Shown: positions 17,736 to 40,560 of the stretch, piece by piece
Numbering within the stretch: position 1 is the first letter of the stretch
Layout: each line of letters starts with the position of its first letter
Origin: a virus
Lineage: Duplodnaviria > Heunggongvirae > Uroviricota > Caudoviricetes
Reading direction: 5' to 3' (one strand)
IMG/VR virus record: IMGVR_UViG_3300049460_000121
Coordinates: 64,001-128,000 of that record
DNA length: 64,000 nucleotides
The notes under the pieces: model-generated
Databases searched by the model: none
Seen by the model: only the letters and a program-made list of their open reading frames with translations
Told to the model about the DNA's origin: nothing
Program-made: the position numbers and the translations under genes

Positions 17736-19298
17736 TTACCAGACTGGCCGGCCGTCACGACGTCCGCGCGAATCGCGGCTGTCACGGGCGTCCGACACAT
17801 CTGTGCTGAGACTGATGCCGCGGTTGATGTCGACATGGGACGGGGTGGAATCATCACGGGCGTGACGAACACCTTCGGCCAACTTGACGATCTCATCGGA
17901 CAACAGGTCGACGGTTTGGATAGTGTTGCTGAGGGTTGGGGCTACCAACGAGTCAGCGGCGCTGAAGAATGGGAAGTAATGCTCCTCACCCCCGTCAAGA
18001 CTGATCCAGATTTCGATATCCTGGTCAATGTTGGCGTTGATGGTGCAGTCAATATCCATCATGCCACCGTGGCTGATAGCTTGCAGGATGACCGACTCAA
18101 CCGTGGATTCGAAATACTCCAAGGTAGAGGTGGCTTCCAGTCCCTGTACAAACGGCGTGCAGCGCCCAGCCAGTACCCGAGGCTCGCCCATGCGGGCACG
18201 AGTGTTCAGGATGAGGTTGTCAACCTTCGAGTACATGGCGTTGATCATCACCACCGGAAGGCTCTGGGCAATGATGGTAGCTGCCAGGCATTCAGGGGAG
18301 TCCGAGTTCCAGCTACGCGCTTCGGACAGGTTGATGGAGGACTTCCGCATTTCGTACGGCGTGAACGGCATCTGTTCATCTTCATTGAACTCAGGATTCA
18401 TGTCCATGAGCTCGCCAAAGGTGATGTAGCCAGAGTCCATGATGCCGCTGACGCGACGCAACTCTTCCAGGTACGGATCCACGTCCAGGCAGTTCTCAGG
18501 TGCCAGGTCGGAGGCCGAGGCCATGATCAGATCGTCATCTTCACGATCAAGATCGCTACTGCCACGGGCCGAGGTTGCACGGGAGTGTGCGGTCAGGGCA
18601 CGAGACAGGAAGCGGGATGGGTCATTGTTCTCACGGGTCGATGCCCGCAGCTGAGAGCTAAAGGAACCAGTGGTGTTCGTACCGATAGAACCGGACGACC
18701 GCAGATGGCTACCGAATGCAGACTCGGAACCTTTGCGGTTGAACAGATCCATTGGACGCAGGGTCACTGGGGTCAGGTCAGTGCGACGACGCTCGCCATT
18801 AATAGCCGAACGGTTGAGGATCTGGTCATGCGCCTTGATAGACGGCTGCCAGATCTGACTGCCGCCACGGTAAGTGGCTGCTGACATGTGGACGCGAGTG
18901 ATCGAGTTGAAATACATCTTCATCTCAGGATCGAACTTCGCCCGGCCGGACAACTGGCTGTAGCCGGAGTGGTCGGTGTAGCCAACGATGTATTCGTAAT
19001 GGCTGGAGGTACGGCTGGTTTGAATCTCAACCACCATCGCAAACATCAGACGGCGCTCGCCCCAACCACCATCGATCTTTGAATCCATCTTGAAATCGAT
19101 GGACGGAACGATCATGCCTTCGCTTGCAGAGATTGCACTGGCCAGACGCTCGGCGGTAACACTACGACCATCATCGGTCAGGTTAACCACGCGGTCGATG
19201 TCTGACTGGGTGAAGTCGGTGTCGAAGGGACGAATCACGCCCTGCGCGGCACCATTGGTCTCCACCACACTCAATTTCAACAGTTTCATGTTTCCCAC
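17736..19298 (-). CDS. picA: Probable nuclear protein import factor PicA/Imp1 (phiKZ gp69 position)
   Basis: Lies immediately after the gp68-like gene; ~520 aa; GWGERRL.F, GYTD, YFNSI and LRP.D motifs. Mainly a synteny call. Confidence 0.7.
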   Translation of the reverse strand: MGNMKLLKLSVVETNGAAQGVIRPFDTDFTQSDIDRVVNLTDDGRSVTAERLASAISASEGMIVPSIDFKMDSKIDGGWGERRLMFAMVVEIQTSRTSSHYEYIVGYTDHSGYSQLSGRAKFDPEMKMYFNSITRVHMSAATYRGGSQIWQPSIKAHDQILNRSAINGERRRTDLTPVTLRPMDLFNRKGSESAFGSHLRSSGSIGTNTTGSFSSQLRASTRENNDPSRFLSRALTAHSRATSARGSSDLDREDDDLIMASASDLAPENCLDVDPYLEELRRVSGIMDSGYITFGELMDMNPEFNEDEQMPFTPYEMRKSSINLSEARSWNSDSPECLAATIIAQSLPVVMINAMYSKVDNLILNTRARMGEPRVLAGRCTPFVQGLEATSTLEYFESTVESVILQAISHGGMMDIDCTINANIDQDIEIWISLDGGEEHYFPFFSAADSLVAPTLSNTIQTVDLLSDEIVKLAEGVRHARDDSTPSHVDINRGISLSTDVSDARDSRDSRGRRDGRPVW

Positions 19299-32178: not shown

Positions 32179-32965
32179 CCGGATTCACCGTGTAGACATG
32201 TGTCAAATACGGGGAGGGGAAACTCTCCCCTTTATGCCGCACCTCTTTCATCGCTTCGTCCAGAGACTTGGTTACCCCAGTATTGGCGTCGGTGACCGTA
32301 GCCCCTACAGACTCCCAATTCACCGGGAGTAACTCCTCGATCGGGATACCGCACTGGTGCTCAGGGAATGAAGTCGCTCCCCGTCCACGGTACTGCGCCA
32401 ATGGCCGATCCTTCATCCGCACCCCATGCTTCGCGATATCCAGGAACGACGGGAATTCAGGTACGGGATGGTTGATGCCAAACGACAGCGGGTCCGGATT
32501 AGATTCCCAGGTACCAAGGAAATCCTTTACCGGGTTTTCCCTGGCTTCCTCGATCTTCTTTTTGATCCAATCGTTGTCGTAGAAGTAACAGTAGTATTTG
32601 GCGCCGCCGTACTCTCGCACTTCTCGACGGAAGTACTTACGCTGGTCCGGCTGGGGTTCAGACTGCGGCAACACCACCATTGGGATCCGCTCAGCGGCAC
32701 TACGCCTGGCAAAGGCACCCGGTGTACACTCGCACGGGATAACCTTCTTACGCAGACCCTCAACGACCTTGTAGTCCTTCACGACGCAGAAGGATTCGAG
32801 CTCACCCAACTCCCTGAGCTCAGCAGCACCACAACGACACTTGAAGAAATCGGAAGAAATCTTCTGATTCAGGCCAACCAGGTAGCGACCCGCTGGGGTC
32901 GCCTCCAGTTTGCTCAGTGCCAGCATGTAGTCCGTATAACTCTTATCGTCATCCATTCCACTCAT
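32171..32965 (-). CDS. Hypothetical protein with CxC pairs
   Basis: ATGA overlap with the DNA polymerase stop. Confidence 0.6.
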   Translation of the reverse strand: MSGMDDDKSYTDYMLALSKLEATPAGRYLVGLNQKISSDFFKCRCGAAELRELGELESFCVVKDYKVVEGLRKKVIPCECTPGAFARRSAAERIPMVVLPQSEPQPDQRKYFRREVREYGGAKYYCYFYDNDWIKKKIEEARENPVKDFLGTWESNPDPLSFGINHPVPEFPSFLDIAKHGVRMKDRPLAQYRGRGATSFPEHQCGIPIEELLPVNWESVGATVTDANTGVTKSLDEAMKEVRHKGESFPSPYLTHVYTVNPDE

Positions 32966-35082
32966 GGTTCAAGCCCCAAGAAGTCGTACACCAGACGGAG
33001 GTTGTTGCGATCCACAATGAACAGGCCCATGGATTCCAGGATCCGGTAGAAACCGGAGTTGATCTGGTAGGCGAGTTTACGGATGTTGGCCGCTTGCTGG
33101 ATCTCAACAGGTAGACCGCACTGACGAATCGCCTGAGTAGGCAACAGGATAGTGCTCAGGTCCTTACGGTTGTACTTGGTACACCACAGCGCCATGCGCT
33201 CAGCGAACTCACGATCTTCCAAGTCTGCCAGCCATGCCTTGAGGGCCGTCTGGTTTTGAAGGTCGAGGGACAGCTTAACGCAAGCATACGGAGGCTCAGT
33301 CATCTTGCCGTACTTCGGACCGAACACATCCTGCCACAGTTCATGGTAAGGCATCTTCTTGCTGTCGGGTTTGATGTTGTCCGACTTCAAGAAGGTGTAC
33401 TCACCGCGCAGGATAGACCGCACGCATTCCAACTCTGAGTTGGCCACCAGCTTCAATACTTCACCGGCGTTGAGCTTTCTGCCTTCGTTCACCGCATGGA
33501 GGGTGTCATGCATCAAGTCGGCAGTGGCTTTCAGGATGTGCTTCTGCGAAGTCGAACCACGCAGCTCCACGCCCTTGGTTTCCATCTCCAGCTCTTTATA
33601 GACGTTACCTTCACGCATGGACATGGTCGAGTAGTAGTGCTTCGCCAGATTCGTCAAAGCGAACTGAGGGAAGGCGAACTCGTTCTTCATCGCCAGACGG
33701 AAGGTCTGAGACTTCTCCACGCCAATGTTGGTGGACAGCTTGGCCAACGAGTGGGCAATGCACTGGCAGACCATGTAAGTGGCCAGGTACCAGATACGAT
33801 CCTGTTCCTCACCACGGCGCAGGTTACCCGAGTACCATTCAACCCAACCTTCACAGGTAAAGATGGAGGAGTCGGTATCCGCCGCCAAACATACCCGGCG
33901 CTGAATGGATTTCAACGAGGCCACAGTTGGTGGGAGGTGGGAGGTAGCAAAGAACATGGTGATGAAGTCAGCGTAGTGATTCAGACCTTGCTGGACTTTC
34001 CACGCCACCTTACCGATCGTTTGCCAACCCGCTGGGTCGTTTGCCTTTACTCGGGCATACGTAGAACCACGCAGGACGGTCGCACACAGGGCGTTCACGT
34101 ACGCCAGGTCAGTCGGGTCCATGTCTTTGATTACGTCGTCTGTAACAACGTCTGGGACGTCGCTGATGTCGATCGCGATAAGGGTGGTCAACATGTCACG
34201 AATGACTTTGTCGTTGTACTGGGCCAAGTGGAACATGTCGCCGGAGTAGCAGAAGATTGCCCGTTCCAGTTCAGTCATGCCTTCTACGGCCGAACGGATG
34301 ATGGCGTCTTCGGTGGTGTCGCTCCAGTACAGGTCAGTCGACCGGGAGATCATCTTGCAGACCTGATCCACGGTTGGGTAGACGATCCCGTACTTCTCGA
34401 TAATGTCAGCGAACTGAGCCCGACGCTCGATGGTGCACACTGCTACGATGTTCGCCTTGGCGATCTCTGGCGAGTGGTAGTGACGGGAACCAGCCAGGAA
34501 GCGTTCTACCGTAGCGTTACCGTAACCTGCCGCTGCGCGGCACAGGGATGTCAGGCTGGAGTGACCAGTGGCGATGAACAGAGGGTTACCCTCAAAGCCA
34601 CGCATACCGGACACGGAGTTGATACGGATCTTACGGGCGTTCTGGTCATAGTCGGCCAGTTGGCTGCCCAGGATGTCGCCTTCTTGCTTCAAGACGAACA
34701 TGCGCTTCTTGGAACGCTTACGAGCGGCGATGTTGTCGTCCTGCCATTCGGCGGTTACGGACTTCTCAACTTCCGGACGCTCGTAGATCACCATGGACGG
34801 GGACAGAATCCGGTTGGTGTCGATGACTTCGTTTACATAGCCCAGAAAGGTGGTCTCTTCCGCTTCACGGTGACCCGGCCCTTTACGTACCAGTTGGAGC
34901 ATCTGTGGATCTTGAAATTCAAACTTACCGCCGCGGCGGGTCTCTTTCTTAACGTATTCGAGACACTCGGCCAAAGGCTTCTTTAATTGCAAGGAGATGT
35001 ACTTGGCGGTTTGCTCGATGTAGCCCTGACGAATATCCAGGTTACGGTTATAATCGTCGAGGGGAAGAAGAAATGGGTTCAT
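32962..35082 (-). CDS. Family B DNA polymerase, polymerase-domain half (phiKZ gp50-like)
   Basis: Motif B QNARKIRINSVSG; motif C ADTDS; KNE; KHY; KGVEL. Confidence 0.92.
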   Translation of the reverse strand: MNPFLLPLDDYNRNLDIRQGYIEQTAKYISLQLKKPLAECLEYVKKETRRGGKFEFQDPQMLQLVRKGPGHREAEETTFLGYVNEVIDTNRILSPSMVIYERPEVEKSVTAEWQDDNIAARKRSKKRMFVLKQEGDILGSQLADYDQNARKIRINSVSGMRGFEGNPLFIATGHSSLTSLCRAAAGYGNATVERFLAGSRHYHSPEIAKANIVAVCTIERRAQFADIIEKYGIVYPTVDQVCKMISRSTDLYWSDTTEDAIIRSAVEGMTELERAIFCYSGDMFHLAQYNDKVIRDMLTTLIAIDISDVPDVVTDDVIKDMDPTDLAYVNALCATVLRGSTYARVKANDPAGWQTIGKVAWKVQQGLNHYADFITMFFATSHLPPTVASLKSIQRRVCLAADTDSSIFTCEGWVEWYSGNLRRGEEQDRIWYLATYMVCQCIAHSLAKLSTNIGVEKSQTFRLAMKNEFAFPQFALTNLAKHYYSTMSMREGNVYKELEMETKGVELRGSTSQKHILKATADLMHDTLHAVNEGRKLNAGEVLKLVANSELECVRSILRGEYTFLKSDNIKPDSKKMPYHELWQDVFGPKYGKMTEPPYACVKLSLDLQNQTALKAWLADLEDREFAERMALWCTKYNRKDLSTILLPTQAIRQCGLPVEIQQAANIRKLAYQINSGFYRILESMGLFIVDRNNLRLVYDFLGLEP

Positions 35083-35128
35083 CTATTGCTCCAGGGTACA
35101 TTGCTCTACATTACGTAAGTACGCCCAG

Positions 35129-35180
35129 TAAAAAAAGAAAGAGCATAAACCCACCCGCGGTTAGGCGGGTGGGCTATATG
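35129..35180 (-). terminator. Terminator ending the small-gene operon
   Basis: aaaaaaaagaaag agcata.. cccacccgc-ggttag-gcgggtggg. Confidence 0.8.
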
Positions 35181-35573
35181 TCACAATGTCTCGATCGTGA
35201 AGTCTTCGATACCGTGCGCAATCATCATCGATCGCAGGGACGCCAGGGTGTTGTCGTCCGAGTTGCGGAGGGTGATGAGACGCACTGGATTCGCGTTCTC
35301 CGTGATGGAGGCAGGTTTTACCCACGGGATACCCATGTACAGGGTCTCGTTGTTAGCATTGATCAGCTTGGCGTAGCTGTAGCCCGTGTAGGAGTCCGGA
35401 ACACCTGGTGGGAGGTACGGATAGTTCTGCATGTGTTTCGCGGCAGCATCGAAGCCCAGGGCGACTACAGTCCCAGCGTCGAGGATACCGACAAAGCGGA
35501 GGTTCTTGTGACGAACACCTTCGTAAGTGTCGAAGGTTAACGTCTTATTGAGTGCATCGGAATTCAACTGCAT
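35181..35573 (-). CDS. Small beta-rich protein (phiKZ gp49-like position)
   Basis: GGAG RBS; H...YPYLPPGVPD and GIPWV motifs. Confidence 0.7.
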   Translation of the reverse strand: MQLNSDALNKTLTFDTYEGVRHKNLRFVGILDAGTVVALGFDAAAKHMQNYPYLPPGVPDSYTGYSYAKLINANNETLYMGIPWVKPASITENANPVRLITLRNSDDNTLASLRSMMIAHGIEDFTIETL

Positions 35574-35904
35574 TGAAAGGTGTCTCCATTAACAGGGCGC
35601 TGAAGTAGCCGTGTTCGACCATCTCGAGTTTACTCACCAGTCCTACGGACAGGAATTCGAGCAGCTCGTCATGATCGATGTTGTCCCAGAGGGGATCCAG
35701 GTCAATACCCAGGCTGTCAAGGTAACCTTCACCTTGGACCAAAGATTCCAGGACAAAGTCCCAGCACTCCTTGAACGCTACTGACTTCTGGGAGAGTCTC
35801 CGCGGAACCTCCCCAAGAACAGGGTCATTCCGCACGCAGTCCCAGACCAGCGTGGTTAACATCGATCCTAGTTTTGGGGAATGTCCCAGTATGTAGTAGC
35901 TCAT
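35545..35904 (-). CDS. Small hypothetical protein (array member 9)
   Basis: 119 aa; N-terminal strand YYILG and C-terminal hairpin. Confidence 0.65.
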   Translation of the reverse strand: MSYYILGHSPKLGSMLTTLVWDCVRNDPVLGEVPRRLSQKSVAFKECWDFVLESLVQGEGYLDSLGIDLDPLWDNIDHDELLEFLSVGLVSKLEMVEHGYFSALLMETPFNAVEFRCTQ

Positions 35905-35925
35905 GATTATTGGTCCAGGGATACG

Positions 35926-36303
35926 TCAGATACAGGCCACCAGTACTCTGGCATGAATTTGACGTGAATCGGAAATGGTTAATCGCACAAGATGGACGGC
36001 AGCAGCGCTTAGCCCGACATTCCTGAAGATACTCTCGAGCGCAGGGTAGTACTCATCCAATAAGTAGTCAGCTGCGATCTCGGCAGCGCCGATTGATTTG
36101 AAAACCTCATCACTCCGCAGTTCCCGAGCGAGTTTCTCGCGGTTAGCACCATTGGACATCCGCCGTCCCCAGACGGCTTGTTTCTGGATGATGAGGTCGG
36201 GACGATAGTTCAACTCGTCTAACCTGCCATCTAGATACCGAATGAGTGCTCGGGTCGGCTGAGTGACATCGACTATCTGAAAGTCAACATCACCAGTGGC
36301 CAA
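35926..36303 (-). CDS. Small hypothetical protein (array member 8)
   Basis: GAGGT RBS with TTG start overlapping the upstream gene end. Confidence 0.65.
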   Translation of the reverse strand: MATGDVDFQIVDVTQPTRALIRYLDGRLDELNYRPDLIIQKQAVWGRRMSNGANREKLARELRSDEVFKSIGAAEIAADYLLDEYYPALESIFRNVGLSAAAVHLVRLTISDSRQIHARVLVACI

Positions 36304-36673
36304 TTTTCCACCTCGTATCAATGGACAGTAAAAGGAATGGCCCCGCTCTCTTGAACTTGGCCGCCTGGAGTGTGTAAATCGAGCCAAGTGAGTAGACGCC
36401 ATATAAATGATCGGCTAGGACGCGGTACAGCTTCTGGGCTTGGGAGTAGGGTCCGATCTGGCAGTGCAGTTTCTCCCGAGGGATGTACGGCAAGAACAGA
36501 CCCAACTCATAGCCCTTCTCGGCTGCCTTATCGCCCATTTGCTCCACATCTTCATGGACCAGGTCCGCCAACTGCTTCAGCGTGCGCTGAATGTCCTGAA
36601 GGGACACGAAGTCCCTGAGCAGGAGGTCGTGGATCAGGACAAGCTCACGGGTGGTTCTTGTTAGCTCTGTCAT
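36290..36673 (-). CDS. Small hypothetical protein (array member 7)
   Basis: GGAG RBS. Confidence 0.65.
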   Translation of the reverse strand: MTELTRTTRELVLIHDLLLRDFVSLQDIQRTLKQLADLVHEDVEQMGDKAAEKGYELGLFLPYIPREKLHCQIGPYSQAQKLYRVLADHLYGVYSLGSIYTLQAAKFKRAGPFLLLSIDTRWKIGHW

Positions 36674-36983
36674 TCCAGGCGATCTCCACGAACGCTGACC
36701 GGTGGACTACCTCAACGTCGACATTCGACAGAGGATGCGTCACGTTCAAGACTGAGCTGAAGATCTTGGTGTTGTACAGGATCGTCAGTAGTCGGTTGAT
36801 GTACAACTCCACATCGTGCAGTGTCACCTGATGTTCCCGGCTGATACTCCCCAATACCTCACGGTCGAGACCCATGTTGGCTTCTGCCGTCATGGTTATT
36901 ACTTCACGGACGATTCGCTCAGCTGCGTCTTTATCCATGACTGGGAAATCGGGCAGCTCGAGCACATAACGTTCTACTTGCAT
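36645..36983 (-). CDS. Small hypothetical protein (array member 6)
   Basis: GAGGT RBS. Confidence 0.7.
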   Translation of the reverse strand: MQVERYVLELPDFPVMDKDAAERIVREVITMTAEANMGLDREVLGSISREHQVTLHDVELYINRLLTILYNTKIFSSVLNVTHPLSNVDVEVVHRSAFVEIAWNDRANKNHP

Positions 36984-36990
36984 GCTTACC

Positions 36991-37395
36991 TCAGCTTATA
37001 AGGAAATGTCTCCCTGACCGACTGGACTTGACGTGGAGCAAACCCTCCTCGCAATAGCCGCAATCGCGTGGAAGTACATCGTGGATCATGTTCTTGAGAT
37101 CTTCGTCGTGGATATACCGACGCTTGAACACATAGAACGTTGCATGAAAGTCGGACCAGAACCTGGCATAACCTTCATGGTGGGGGTCTTTGTAACACAC
37201 GCTCAATCGCTCGAAGGCGCGCATCACCTCGTCTTCAGGTGCCACCAGGCCAAACAGCATAATGGACAACAGAAGACAAGGCAGTTCGCCATAGTTCGGG
37301 TAATCGCCCTGTTCCTCCAGAGCAGCGAGCGCTCCGGCAAGATCAGGTTCCAACGTCAGGACGAATCCTGGATATAGGTCTACGCTAGGTGGCAT
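36991..37395 (-). CDS. Small hypothetical protein (array member 5)
   Basis: GAGG RBS; ATG at 37395. Confidence 0.65.
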   Translation of the reverse strand: MPPSVDLYPGFVLTLEPDLAGALAALEEQGDYPNYGELPCLLLSIMLFGLVAPEDEVMRAFERLSVCYKDPHHEGYARFWSDFHATFYVFKRRYIHDEDLKNMIHDVLPRDCGYCEEGLLHVKSSRSGRHFLIS

Positions 37396-37879
37396 CGACG
37401 AATTCCTCGTAAGTAAACTCGAGGAGTACCGACCGGTTTTTGATTTCGACATTATTCACCCTCATTGGGGCAAACTTCTTCACCACGTCGAAGACGCCTA
37501 GAAAGCGCTTCTCAAAGATGGAGAACCAAACATCTACCGCCATGGTCGCTCTCCCTATATCTTCGGGCGGAATAAACTCATCCGTCAGACGTTCTAGGAA
37601 GAACTCATCATCGTAGTAAACGTAGTGGATAAATGCCTTGAGGATAACATCGGCCTCAGCGCACAAATCCATCTCGAGCGATTCAAACTCCAGGTCCTCC
37701 AGGTTAACGATGGCGTGGCGATACTCGGCTTGGCCTTGATACGGTGGAACGATGGTCCAGCTCTCGTTGGAACTGCTCCAGTGCCTTCTCGACCTCAGGG
37801 TGGATGAGTTCTCCCGCTTGCCGTCTGTGTCGGATAAATCGACTGAACGTTTGCGGCTCCTCCTTAGGTACTGTTTCAT
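37385..37879 (-). CDS. Small hypothetical protein (array member 4); start uncertain
   Basis: Protein-like sequence begins only near 37750; the nearest ATG is 37879. Confidence 0.55.
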   Translation of the reverse strand: MKQYLRRSRKRSVDLSDTDGKRENSSTLRSRRHWSSSNESWTIVPPYQGQAEYRHAIVNLEDLEFESLEMDLCAEADVILKAFIHYVYYDDEFFLERLTDEFIPPEDIGRATMAVDVWFSIFEKRFLGVFDVVKKFAPMRVNNVEIKNRSVLLEFTYEEFVDAT

Positions 37880-38246
37880 GATACTCGACTTCCAATAACG
37901 GCTTGTCGTAGATGAACTTCGCATCTACTACGGTGAAGCGCCGCATGTCACTCAGGGTCTTGTCTTTATAAACAAAGTCCTCAAACTCAATCAGGACGTT
38001 GATCATATCCCTGCGGTCGACACGGTGGGGCCGTAGGTCTTCCAGGATGTCCAAGATGGTACTCCCCTCTCCGCTAAAACAACGGATAAAGGTTTCAATC
38101 AGGATGTCCTCGGTCGCCTTTTGGATCTTGAACAGGTCCATGTTAGACTTATTCAAGACATGCCGGAGTTGGTCGATAAAGTCACTACAGCCTATGCGGC
38201 AGTATCGAACCACTCTAGTTTGCTCTGATGCCGTACTCGTGTCCAT
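37704..38246 (-). CDS. Small hypothetical protein (array member 3)
   Basis: ATG at 38246 with GAGAG RBS. Confidence 0.65.
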   Translation of the reverse strand: MDTSTASEQTRVVRYCRIGCSDFIDQLRHVLNKSNMDLFKIQKATEDILIETFIRCFSGEGSTILDILEDLRPHRVDRRDMINVLIEFEDFVYKDKTLSDMRRFTVVDAKFIYDKPLLEVEYHETVPKEEPQTFSRFIRHRRQAGELIHPEVEKALEQFQRELDHRSTVSRPSRVSPRHR

Positions 38247-38736
38247 GGTCTCTCGTCCACTCTTCGATCCGATAATCCTCACCCACTTCCACGCAGATAC
38301 TGTTTCGTATCCGGCTGATGTGAACGATCCTCCAAGTAGGCAGGTCAATGTGGTCCAGGATGAAAACAGACAACTTATCGGACATATCGGTCAGTATCTC
38401 GTTAACCTTCGGGATCTTCTCCAACAGGTAATGGAACTCGTTGATCAGGTCGTTGGTTCTTGCATGCTGGACCTGATACCGCTGGACCCGCTTTCTTTTG
38501 GACCCATACCGCTCATAACCCATCAGGTCACGGACTTCCGAGGAGGCACGCTTTGGACGTGCCCAGAGAAGTTGCTCAGTGATAAAGTCATCGACCATTT
38601 TGTAGATTAGGTCGGATGCATCGTTTTGCAGCTGGCGGCTCCCTTTCTCCTCGTACCGTAAGGCACGCTGATAGATTTGATTGGCAAATTCGCTAATGTC
38701 TAGGACGAATGAGCCTGTAGCATGTTCTAACGTCAC
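38215..38736 (-). CDS. Small hypothetical protein (array member 2)
   Basis: GGAG RBS with GTG start; PTWR...GEDYRI motif. Confidence 0.7.
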   Translation of the reverse strand: MTLEHATGSFVLDISEFANQIYQRALRYEEKGSRQLQNDASDLIYKMVDDFITEQLLWARPKRASSEVRDLMGYERYGSKRKRVQRYQVQHARTNDLINEFHYLLEKIPKVNEILTDMSDKLSVFILDHIDLPTWRIVHISRIRNSICVEVGEDYRIEEWTRDHGHEYGIRAN

Positions 38737-39043
38737 GGAAATCTCCAATGATCAAGGTATTTCTGTTGACCAAAAACCAGAGTTCTTCATCGCAAAGTCG
38801 CTCTCCAACGCTACGGGGTAGATACGTAATTGCGTCCAATCCAAACCGACGCACTGCCGCATCCAACTTTCGAACATCGTGACTGACTGATTGACCCTTT
38901 TGCGGAGTCATCGGAGAACAAGGAATGCCGTAAGAGTGGGTGTACTCTTTGACCAACCAATCCTCGATAACTCCAGCATGAATTTCGCGTTCGGGATCAA
39001 TCAACCTGACGAGTTCGGATATGTCAGTGATGATGTAAGCCAT
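38693..39043 (-). CDS. Small hypothetical protein (array member 1)
   Basis: AAGGGGG RBS; directly after a promoter-like motif. Confidence 0.7.
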   Translation of the reverse strand: MAYIITDISELVRLIDPEREIHAGVIEDWLVKEYTHSYGIPCSPMTPQKGQSVSHDVRKLDAAVRRFGLDAITYLPRSVGERLCDEELWFLVNRNTLIIGDFRDVRTCYRLIRPRH

Positions 39044-39062
39044 AGATCCCCCTTTATACATC

Positions 39063-39090
39063 AGATAAGTAGATTCTGTAACTAATTACA
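39063..39090 (-). promoter_or_regulatory. Putative promoter of the small-gene operon
   Basis: Minus strand reads GTAATTAGTTACAGAATCTACTTATC, a variant of the recurring motif. Confidence 0.55.
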
Positions 39091-39187: not shown

Positions 39188-39409
39188 TTACGAGAAGGAG
39201 GGATCGCCGAGGTCCTCGAAGGATGGGTCATCCTTGTTCAGCAACCCGCGGTGTTTCAGAGGATCGTAGGTCTCCTGAGGGAAAGCGCCGTGCCACGATT
39301 GACCGCGGCAGCAGGCGCACTTGAAACCGTCACCGTTGGACGGAGTCAGTTGAAGGGAGTCGATGGTGTTGCAGCACACGCAAACAAACATGGATCCGCC
39401 GTAAGACAT
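39188..39409 (-). CDS. Small Zn-ribbon protein
   Basis: AAGGA RBS; CVCC...CACC...WH. Confidence 0.65.
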   Translation of the reverse strand: MSYGGSMFVCVCCNTIDSLQLTPSNGDGFKCACCRGQSWHGAFPQETYDPLKHRGLLNKDDPSFEDLGDPSFS

Positions 39410-39479: not shown

Positions 39480-40496
39480 TCACTCGAAGACCAGACCGGT
39501 AGCGTGGGTGACGGTTTTGGCGTCACTCAGCTTGGTGGTGGCTTGCTGGTTTTGCTTCTGCAAGGCAACAGTGCTCTTCAGGGTGTTCAGGCGATCGAAC
39601 AGGCCGGACAGGTTGTCCACCGAGACGGTGTAGAAGAAGTTGTTCTTGCTGTTGGCATCGGCCGGCAGGTAGCCAGTCTTGTCGTAGTCGGCGTCGATCT
39701 GAGGACCAACCTGATCTTCGCCGGTCAGCAGCGAGATGTACGCGATCGGACGGGCCGAGGCTTTCTGGATGTCTTCAGTCTTGGTGAACACGTCCAGCAT
39801 GGCCAGACCTGGCTTGTTGTGGCTGACCAGGTGGAAGTCGAACATGTTCTGGATGTCGGCGCTGTCCAGAGCTTTGTTACGGCCAGAGGCCAACATGCCC
39901 AGCGAGCCCAGGACGAACTTCGGCACCAGGTTGTTGTCGATGATCGATTTGGTTGGACTGTTTTCGGCGTAGAACATAACGATCGGACGACCAACGCGTG
40001 CAACGGCTTGTTCCAGACCAGTCAGAGTGCCGATGGTGTTGGTGGTACGCTTCAGGGTTTCGTGGGAACCGATGATGATCGCCACCGCCATCTTGCCCTG
40101 TTTCAGCAGTTCTTCCAGGATCAGAGGACCTGCAACGGAACCCGAACCACCGGATGCCGAGAACAGAACCACGTTGAAGTCCTTCGGTTCGTGCGCCAGC
40201 AGGATTTGTGGCAGGACGCCCATGATCGCTTCGGCGTTCTTCGGGCGGTTGGAACCGGAACCATCCAGACCCTTCAGGGTGAAGGTGTGTTTGGACGGGA
40301 CGTTGTGCAGGTTGGCGAACGAGGTGTCGATGTACGCGAAGTGCTCGCTGGCATTTTGCTCGTCAGCAGTCAGGACCAGATCTTCACGATGGCTGCGCAA
40401 CAGGTTTATACCGGTCCCACCACAACTGTAAAACATAATGCTGCGAGTTTTCGGTTTGATCAAGTCGGCGTTGATTTGCTCGTTTACTGCGTTCAT
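39480..40496 (-). CDS. phuZ: PhuZ tubulin-like spindle protein
   Basis: CGGTGINL; IDTS; GSG; GGSGSVAG signature; LDSADIQN T7 loop; C-terminal GLVFE. Confidence 0.95.
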   Translation of the reverse strand: MNAVNEQINADLIKPKTRSIMFYSCGGTGINLLRSHREDLVLTADEQNASEHFAYIDTSFANLHNVPSKHTFTLKGLDGSGSNRPKNAEAIMGVLPQILLAHEPKDFNVVLFSASGGSGSVAGPLILEELLKQGKMAVAIIIGSHETLKRTTNTIGTLTGLEQAVARVGRPIVMFYAENSPTKSIIDNNLVPKFVLGSLGMLASGRNKALDSADIQNMFDFHLVSHNKPGLAMLDVFTKTEDIQKASARPIAYISLLTGEDQVGPQIDADYDKTGYLPADANSKNNFFYTVSVDNLSGLFDRLNTLKSTVALQKQNQQATTKLSDAKTVTHATGLVFE

Positions 40497-40560
40497 GTAA
40501 AGCTCCACTATTTAATTGGCGGGATCTGATATGAAGATCCCAGGAAAAGAGGTTATTGCA

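Follow-up and report, generated by a model that had tools for sequence, protein, structure and literature searches.

A conserved operon of small, diverged proteins between PhuZ and DNA polymerase in a Caudoviricetes genome: a probable counterpart of the phiKZ Imp2/Imp4 gene block

Between the tubulin PhuZ (gp39) and the C-terminal DNA polymerase subunit DNAP-C (gp50), phage phiKZ carries genes in the order gp43, gp44, gp45, gp46, gp47 (Imp2), gp48 (Imp4), and gp49 (SH3DP). Imp2 (orf47) and Imp4 (orf48) are cargo-specific nuclear-import factors: the import of Imp2 depends on Imp1, that of Nlp1 needs Imp2, and that of the host protein TopA needs Imp4. The two came out of selections with different cargos and act separately from each other, and imp2 and imp4 tolerate zero transposon insertions. 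Together with Imp5 they have been published as cargo-specific adaptors, reported to be conserved only among Pseudomonas phiKZ-like phages. Iyer et al. noted the SH3 protein upstream of the polymerase and proposed it as a possible polymerase subunit, and we found no literature on the functions of phiKZ gp43 to gp46. Here, we discuss an operon of ten genes, g1 to g10, in the same genomic setting in a 64,000-nucleotide stretch (the window) of a 267,467-base virus record (IMGVR_UViG_3300049460_000121, positions 64,001 to 128,000). On balance, we think it probable that this operon is the Imp2/Imp4-type set of its clade, i.e., the local version of the Chimalliviridae block made up of PhuZ, a gp43-like gene, small genes, SH3DP, and DNAP-C, in which the small genes are diverged copies of one domain. 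The operon is real and conserved, g2 and g10 correspond to gp43 and gp49, and g8 and g9 have a common layout; docking of g8 on Imp1 is modeled, and we infer an adaptor function for the array proteins and a shared fold and role for g1 and g3 to g7.

Two of the ten genes tie the locus to phiKZ. The g2 product matches the phiKZ gp43 group (hhalign 95% to 99.8%; hmmsearch E 4e-10; phrog_14023, E 1e-7) and aligns to the N-terminal half of gp43, being about 173 amino acids (aa) long vs 357 aa in phiKZ; it belongs to the known gp43 family. The g10 product is SH3DP (Pfam PF20287, E 1e-19, 70.8 bits vs a cut-off of 25), matches gp49 over its full length, and is encoded directly upstream of the polymerase; PF20287 was found in 77 open reading frames (ORFs) of the loci studied. 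The tenth gene, taken in an earlier note on this DNA as a possible conserved partner of the other nine, is therefore better described as a member of a known SH3-fold family of polymerase neighbors. Since g2 and g10 hold the same relative positions as gp43 and gp49, the block equals phiKZ gp43 to gp49, with g3 to g9 filling the gp44 to gp48 interval. The statement in the same note that some phiKZ import genes map immediately before the polymerase gene is borne out as well, with orf47 (Imp2) and orf48 (Imp4) placed directly before gp49 and gp50. All ten minus-strand ORFs (112-214 aa; 35181-39061) were located, and with starts chosen from ribosome-binding sites (RBSs) their products are about 112-180 aa long. 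In order of transcription, they are:

38693..39043, minus strand: g1, 116 aa, first array member (start 39043 from RBS)
38215..38736, minus strand: g2, about 173 aa, N-terminal-half homolog of phiKZ gp43 (start 38736 from RBS)
37704..38246, minus strand: g3, array member of about 180 aa that ends in a 58-aa tail (start 38246 from RBS)
37385..37879, minus strand: g4, array member of 164 aa whose N-terminal tail is Arg/Ser-rich and at least 54 aa long (start 37879 from RBS)
36991..37395, minus strand: g5, 134 aa, array member (start 37395 from RBS)
36645..36983, minus strand: g6, 112 aa, array member (start 36983 from RBS)
36290..36673, minus strand: g7, 127 aa, array member (start 36673 from RBS)
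35926..36402, minus strand: g8, 125-158 aa, at the phiKZ Imp2 position (start 36303 or 36402 from RBS)
35545..35904, minus strand: g9, 119 aa, at the phiKZ Imp4 position (start 35904 from RBS)
35181..35573, minus strand: g10, 130 aa, SH3DP of the phiKZ gp49 family (start 35573 from RBS)

Relatives of the locus were collected from viral and metagenome collections and form a ladder of polymerase identities from 27% to 96%. In comparison with the close relatives L005 and L002, the ratio of nonsynonymous to synonymous substitutions (dN/dS) is 0.06-0.36 for all ten genes (e.g., g1 0.20; g3 0.18; g5 0.10-0.12; g6 0.08; g7 0.12-0.25). This purifying selection shows that all ten are real genes. The whole series g1 to g10 is collinear, each gene with its own ortholog, in about 25 loci at 60-96% polymerase identity, while the synteny from PhuZ to SH3DP, with 3-16 intervening ORFs, extends to over 50 loci. 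The g1 family keeps a fixed position in 29 loci; the families of g3, g5, g6, and g7 are found in 17, 17, 15, and 18 loci, and that of g4 has 37 members in 35 loci, including Pseudomonas phage pPa_SNUABM_DT01 (DT01). This phage is the closest cultured one (43% polymerase identity), and in it, too, PhuZ and polymerase are separated by a series of small genes. The positions of g8 and g9 are fixed across clades. For g8 this holds in 46 loci, at a median distance of 324 nucleotides (nt) ahead of the SH3DP start; its family, with 111 cluster representatives among 1.84 billion proteins, is limited to the present clade and the DT01-like clades. The array also varies: a family of about 138 aa (c14) lies between g5 and g6 in most relatives (e.g., L004 7632-8067) and is absent from the window, L005, and L002.

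The array proteins diverge far faster than the polymerase. In L005, the amino-acid identity of the array members is 56-94% vs 95% for the polymerase, and none of 50,697 phage records matched the region at the DNA level. Moreover, the synonymous divergence (dS) along the operon is uneven, 0.29-1.8 against L005 and L002 vs 0.45 for the polymerase, with 1.7-1.8 for g2, about 1.0 for g1, g5, and g7, and 0.29 for g9. Because dS is so uneven, the data suggest, in addition to fast change, that related phages exchange alleles of single genes by recombination, in a mosaic fashion. Pfam and PHROG searches with g1 and g3 to g9 returned no match, with only sub-threshold noise (TetR_C_7, TFIID).

The fold was modeled with AlphaFold for g8 and g9, two of the nine array members. 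The g8 model has a strand (residues 40-45), four helices, and a hairpin (134-157), with a predicted local distance difference test score (pLDDT) of 85-94 in the domain; in the g9 model (mean pLDDT 78), a strand (3-8) is followed by helices and a hairpin (90-105). The order of the elements is identical in both models, and 11 targets are common to the two lists of the 50 top structural matches. The earlier note had described such a layout for all nine proteins. It holds in the models of g8 and g9, and for g1 to g7 what stands is an N-terminal strand from a crude propensity predictor, which gave this strand on the family alignments of nine out of nine members and constitutes weak evidence. When predicted viral structures were searched, the best 30-35 matches of each model were nearly all small uncharacterized Chimalliviridae proteins. 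The best match of g8 is a 120-aa protein of phage Mortimer (probability 0.98, template modeling [TM] score 0.60), and the Imp2 orthologs of Psa21, SL2, and PhiPA3 (gp044) are found at ranks 4, 10, and 29 (E 0.05-0.25; TM 0.25-0.33). For g9, rank 1 is gp80 of 201phi2-1, an Imp4 ortholog (E 0.02, probability 0.93, TM 0.42), and the 126-aa Imp4 ortholog of Psa21 is matched with probability 0.95 and TM 0.51; both of these proteins are tied to gp48 by hhalign at 83%. The lengths of the Mortimer match and of matches in Eowyn (116, 118, and 153 aa) fit genes in the PhuZ-polymerase arrays of these phages, which is suggestive but concerns length only. Foldseek probabilities did not exceed 0.18 when a PDB library of comparable size was searched (best E for g8 0.45), and VIA-align gave best Z scores of 4.7 for g8 (root-mean-square deviation [rmsd] 9.4, 92 aligned) and 4.2 for g9 (rmsd 3.7, 83 aligned). 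The lack of a clear PDB relative is not proof of a new fold.

How do g8 and g9 compare with the phiKZ import factors? Imp2 (phiKZ gp47; gp44 in PhiPA3, gp79 in 201phi2-1, gp042 in Psa21) is, like g8, encoded by the second gene before SH3DP and is of similar size. The Imp2 alignment begins with an N-terminal extension; a strand of hydrophobic residues and helices follow, and a hairpin opening with a Gly-Tyr motif forms the C-terminal end. The layout of g8 is similar. Both evolve fast (Imp2 of phiKZ and PhiPA3 are about 31% identical), three Imp2 orthologs are among the best 30 structural matches of g8, and the dependence of Imp2 import on Imp1 has its parallel in the predicted docking of g8 on an Imp1 homolog (see below). 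The two differ in sequence, with no likeness detectable even between profiles, and in the TM scores given above. In the case of Imp4 (phiKZ gp48; gp80 in 201phi2-1, gp044 in Psa21, gp45 in PhiPA3), the gene lies directly before SH3DP as g9 does, and the protein has 127 aa vs 119 aa for g9. Imp4 orthologs of 201phi2-1 and Psa21 are among the structural matches of g9 at Foldseek E 0.02-0.07, without a link in sequence. Taken together, the models point to a weak structural likeness of g8 and g9 to Imp2 and Imp4.

Imp1 has a homolog in the window:

17736..19298, minus strand: Imp1/PicA homolog (BLASTP vs phiKZ gp69: E 6e-26, 23% identity over 509 columns)

Complex prediction was run three times for the g8 domain (residues 37-158) paired with this homolog, for which a 15-row alignment was used, together with three controls. 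The interaction prediction score from aligned errors (ipSAE) was 0.80 (runs 0.61, 0.81, and 0.80), and the best of the three controls scored 0.00. Of 80 solved complexes, 58 attained the same mark, as did two of 110 mismatched pairs; the use of custom alignments makes this calibration a rough one. The runs agreed in at least 68% of their contacts, and the partners had pLDDT values of at least 87. As sequence searches of the PDB with Imp1, Imp2, and the g8 family gave no meaningful match, the result is unlikely to be the recall of a solved complex. The models thus support binding of g8 to the Imp1 homolog. In the predicted complex, g8 would contact its partner through its sheet, i.e., the strand 39-45 and the hairpin 138-154, plus residues 124-131. 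The Imp1 side of the interface is formed by residues 187-215 and 241-272, which are rich in Ser, Thr, and Gly and poorly conserved.

Published phiKZ sites were mapped on this interface through the pairwise alignment with gp69, four of them Imp2-related. The interface residue H198 aligns with phiKZ I226, which is altered in phages selected to block or escape Imp2 import, and A270 maps two residues off an interface residue. H300, a site specific for Nlp2, maps inside the interface. Separately, phiKZ Imp1 has a 13-residue insertion within the region matching 187-272; this insertion contains R212, reported to be specific for Imp7.

With respect to common descent, the families were extended by single linkage over all loci to 24 families, and the 276 profile-profile pairs were compared with the same pairs with reversed sequences as a control:

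P <= 0.003: real 9 of 276; reversed 0 of 276
P <= 0.01: real 15 of 276; reversed 2 of 276
P <= 0.03: real 32 of 276; reversed 5 of 276 (Fisher 4e-6)

The strongest inter-family links are collinear and almost full-length: c4-c15 (55%), g9-c9 (43%, same position), and g2-c15, g8-c4, and c4-g3 (26% each). Between different positions, probabilities of 26-55% are the highest obtained. Weaker links, likewise collinear and almost full-length, connect g4 with c14 and c12 and g5 with c14 (12-15%); g3 and g8 are linked at 7%. Recognizable duplicates are found in two relatives. In L013 (6437-7533), the g4-type gene is present in three tandem copies of 26-31% identity (blastp E 7e-5 and 1e-3), and L033 (3668-4735) has a tandem gene pair (E 2.6e-7). 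The excess of weak similarity over the reversed control and these tandem duplicates favor growth of the array by duplication, followed by divergence beyond recognition. We also observed that gp76 of 201phi2-1 (L103 5680-6057), encoded just after the gp43 homolog, has an hhalign link of 35% (E 4e-4) with c9, a family that directly precedes SH3DP in other clades; the two may be cross-position paralogs.

The most likely explanation of these data is that the nine proteins are very old, diverged copies of one compact domain of the same kind as Imp2 and Imp4, in which an N-terminal strand and about four helices are followed by a C-terminal hairpin that completes a three-stranded sheet. Several points weigh against this explanation. 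Among the nine proteins of the window, all-vs-all BLASTP and hhalign comparisons gave no significant pair (hhalign below 7%). Neither g1 nor any of g3 to g9 has a sequence or profile link to Imp2 or Imp4, enriched alignments included: phmmer, hmmsearch, and hhalign with 4- and 24-sequence Imp2 alignments gave probabilities of at most 1% against all array families, hhalign of the Imp4 group at most 2.3% against g9 and the same-position family c9, and the extended families together with a full-library profile search provided no bridge to Imp2 or Imp4. The g8 profile reaches DT01 and does not reach phiKZ, PhiPA3, Psa21, 201phi2-1, Mortimer, or Eowyn. At the level of structure, g8 and g9 had no match at E 0.001 in the viral library, all Foldseek E values being 0.02 or higher, the TM scores to the Imp2 orthologs are low, and a layout of strand, helices, and hairpin, modeled for two of the nine members, is simple and could arise repeatedly. 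The docking is a prediction and not a measurement, and binding to Imp1 would fit a plain imported cargo equally well as an adaptor. Moreover, the Imp2-related phiKZ residues G88 and R90 fall outside the listed contacts, and since the Imp1 region is poorly conserved, the residue mapping to phiKZ is uncertain and the agreement partial.

Of the proposals in the earlier note, tandem duplication of one fold is supported in part. It is in line with the layout and the 11 of 50 matches common to g8 and g9, with the excess of weak profile links, and with the duplicates in L013 and L033, while similarity between members of the window itself is not significant. A role as cargo-specific import adaptors gains support from synteny, from the weak structural matches of g8 to Imp2 orthologs and of g9 to Imp4 orthologs, and from the predicted g8-Imp1 complex.

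Several alternatives have to be weighed against this background, and here the boundaries of the operon matter. The array is flanked by PhuZ upstream and DNA polymerase downstream, all on the minus strand, and the phrog_4733 and phrog_2927 matches confirm the location assigned to it earlier. The flanking genes and signals are:

39480..40508, minus strand: PhuZ tubulin (phrog_4733, E 2e-71)
39063..39090, minus strand: promoter-like motif (ACAGAATC-TACTTAT), a candidate element preceding g1, with TACTTAT at 39065-39071
35129..35175, minus strand: intrinsic terminator between g10 and the polymerase gene, predicted from sequence
32962..35082, minus strand: DNA polymerase, C-terminal subunit type, phiKZ gp50 family, 706 aa (phrog_2927, E 4e-212)

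The motif in the g1 leader is a variant, one base shorter, of TACATTAT, a motif with seven copies on this strand of the window, and the TACTTAT element is a plausible promoter of g1. The terminator hairpin (35175-35148) has an 11-bp stem with eight G-C pairs and is followed by a T run. The polymerase gene is preceded by a second promoter-like variant, TACTTAC at 35115-35121 and then GTAATGTA (35107-35121, minus strand). Its location, after the terminator and ahead of the polymerase start, suggests that the polymerase gene is transcribed from a promoter of its own. A longer promoter pattern common to the g1 and polymerase leaders had just two occurrences in the window and was dropped as a family motif. 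With the RBS-based starts, seven of the nine gene junctions overlap by 11-176 nt, and the other two are gaps of 7 and 21 nt. Thus, the picture of one operon of ten mostly overlapping genes drawn in the earlier note stands, with ORFs, terminator, and promoter-like motif all located and the promoter activity putative. The longest overlap is that of g3 and g4, which is out of frame and at least 176 nt long (37704-37879, minus strand). As g4 has no ATG, GTG, or TTG closer to its first strand, its N-terminal tail of at least 54 residues, rich in Arg, Ser, and Lys, is obligatory, and it is encoded within the 3' end of g3. Obligatory tails of at least 20 aa are present in 11 of 37 g4-family and 13 of 46 g8-family members. 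Between PhuZ and the array promoter, we also noticed a small ORF (39188-39409, minus strand) with two Cys-x-x-Cys-type pairs and the look of a zinc ribbon; it has a good RBS at the ATG at 39409 and is without a PHROG match.

Of the alternatives, the one that survives best, although we regard it as unlikely, is that unrelated small proteins with a simple common layout serve replication and not import, assisting the split DNA polymerase or its partner SH3DP as accessory factors. In favor of this alternative, the array is co-oriented with and adjoins SH3DP and the polymerase across the family, Iyer et al. proposed that the SH3 protein may be a polymerase subunit, and no significant sequence similarity was found among the nine. 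A strong terminator and a separate promoter-like motif, however, divide the array from the polymerase gene, and published work on the phiKZ polymerase found DNAP-N, DNAP-C, and Rhc and no array protein. In phiKZ, moreover, orf47 and orf48 are assigned to import by genetics. The weak inter-family similarity in excess of the reversed control argues for common descent, and the predicted docking of g8 on Imp1 also speaks against a replication role.

We consider it still less probable that the array has nothing to do with nuclear import and represents an accessory island, evolving fast, whose products act in host takeover or anti-defence. Amino-acid divergence far beyond that of the flanking genes, a dS that points to allele exchange (0.29-1.8 vs 0.45 in the polymerase), and the lack of known domains in most members speak for such an island. 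Yet every position is kept in constant order across the clade down to 60% polymerase identity, and all members are under purifying selection, while accessory islands are usually variable in content. The apparent essentiality of imp2 and imp4 in phiKZ and the predicted g8-Imp1 docking add to this. Finally, assembly of the nine proteins into a hetero-oligomeric ring or stack, the first option of the earlier note, appears very improbable: the genes are tightly packed, and the overlap of stops and starts suggests that their translation is coupled, and the common three-stranded sheet could pair edge to edge, but Imp2 and Imp4 of phiKZ were obtained in selections with different cargos and act separately, an array size of 3-16 ORFs between clades and the duplication or loss of members within a clade (the L013 triplication; the window without c14) fit a fixed assembly poorly, and in the model the sheet face of g8 is occupied by Imp1. 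Each of the replication, anti-defence, and hetero-oligomer explanations accounts for fewer observations than the import explanation does.

If the array proteins are indeed of the Imp2/Imp4 kind, the sheet face of each would dock at the nuclear shell on Imp1/PicA, in the variable region rich in Ser, Thr, and Gly, leaving the helical face free for cargo. In this scenario, each array member would make either a cargo of its own or itself eligible for import. The rapid divergence of the array may then be driven by co-evolution with the cargos and with the variable part of Imp1, and this proposed co-divergence would account for the failure of sequence searches to detect any family outside its own clade. 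A bolder proposal, which we put forward tentatively and hold to be rather doubtful as yet, is that the whole block constitutes the Chimalliviridae repertoire of Imp1-docking import adaptors, derived from one ancient small fold by repeated duplication. Were this true, the sheet of each copy would pair with a variable Imp1 loop and a distinct helical face would serve each cargo class, such that the array would encode the import specificity of the phage nucleus. The phiKZ proteins Imp2 and Imp4 would then be two visible members of a universal family, and not oddities of Pseudomonas phages.

These observations bear on how the protein shell of the phage nucleus selects its imports. If the same positions in distant phages hold structurally related Imp1-docking proteins, adaptors would be a general and expandable part of the import system, and genome sequences would reveal how many there are and how far they have diverged. 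As a concrete surface for mutation, there is the predicted interface of g8 and Imp1, and since the cultured phage pPa_SNUABM_DT01 carries members of the g8 and g4 families, these ideas can be tested at the bench.

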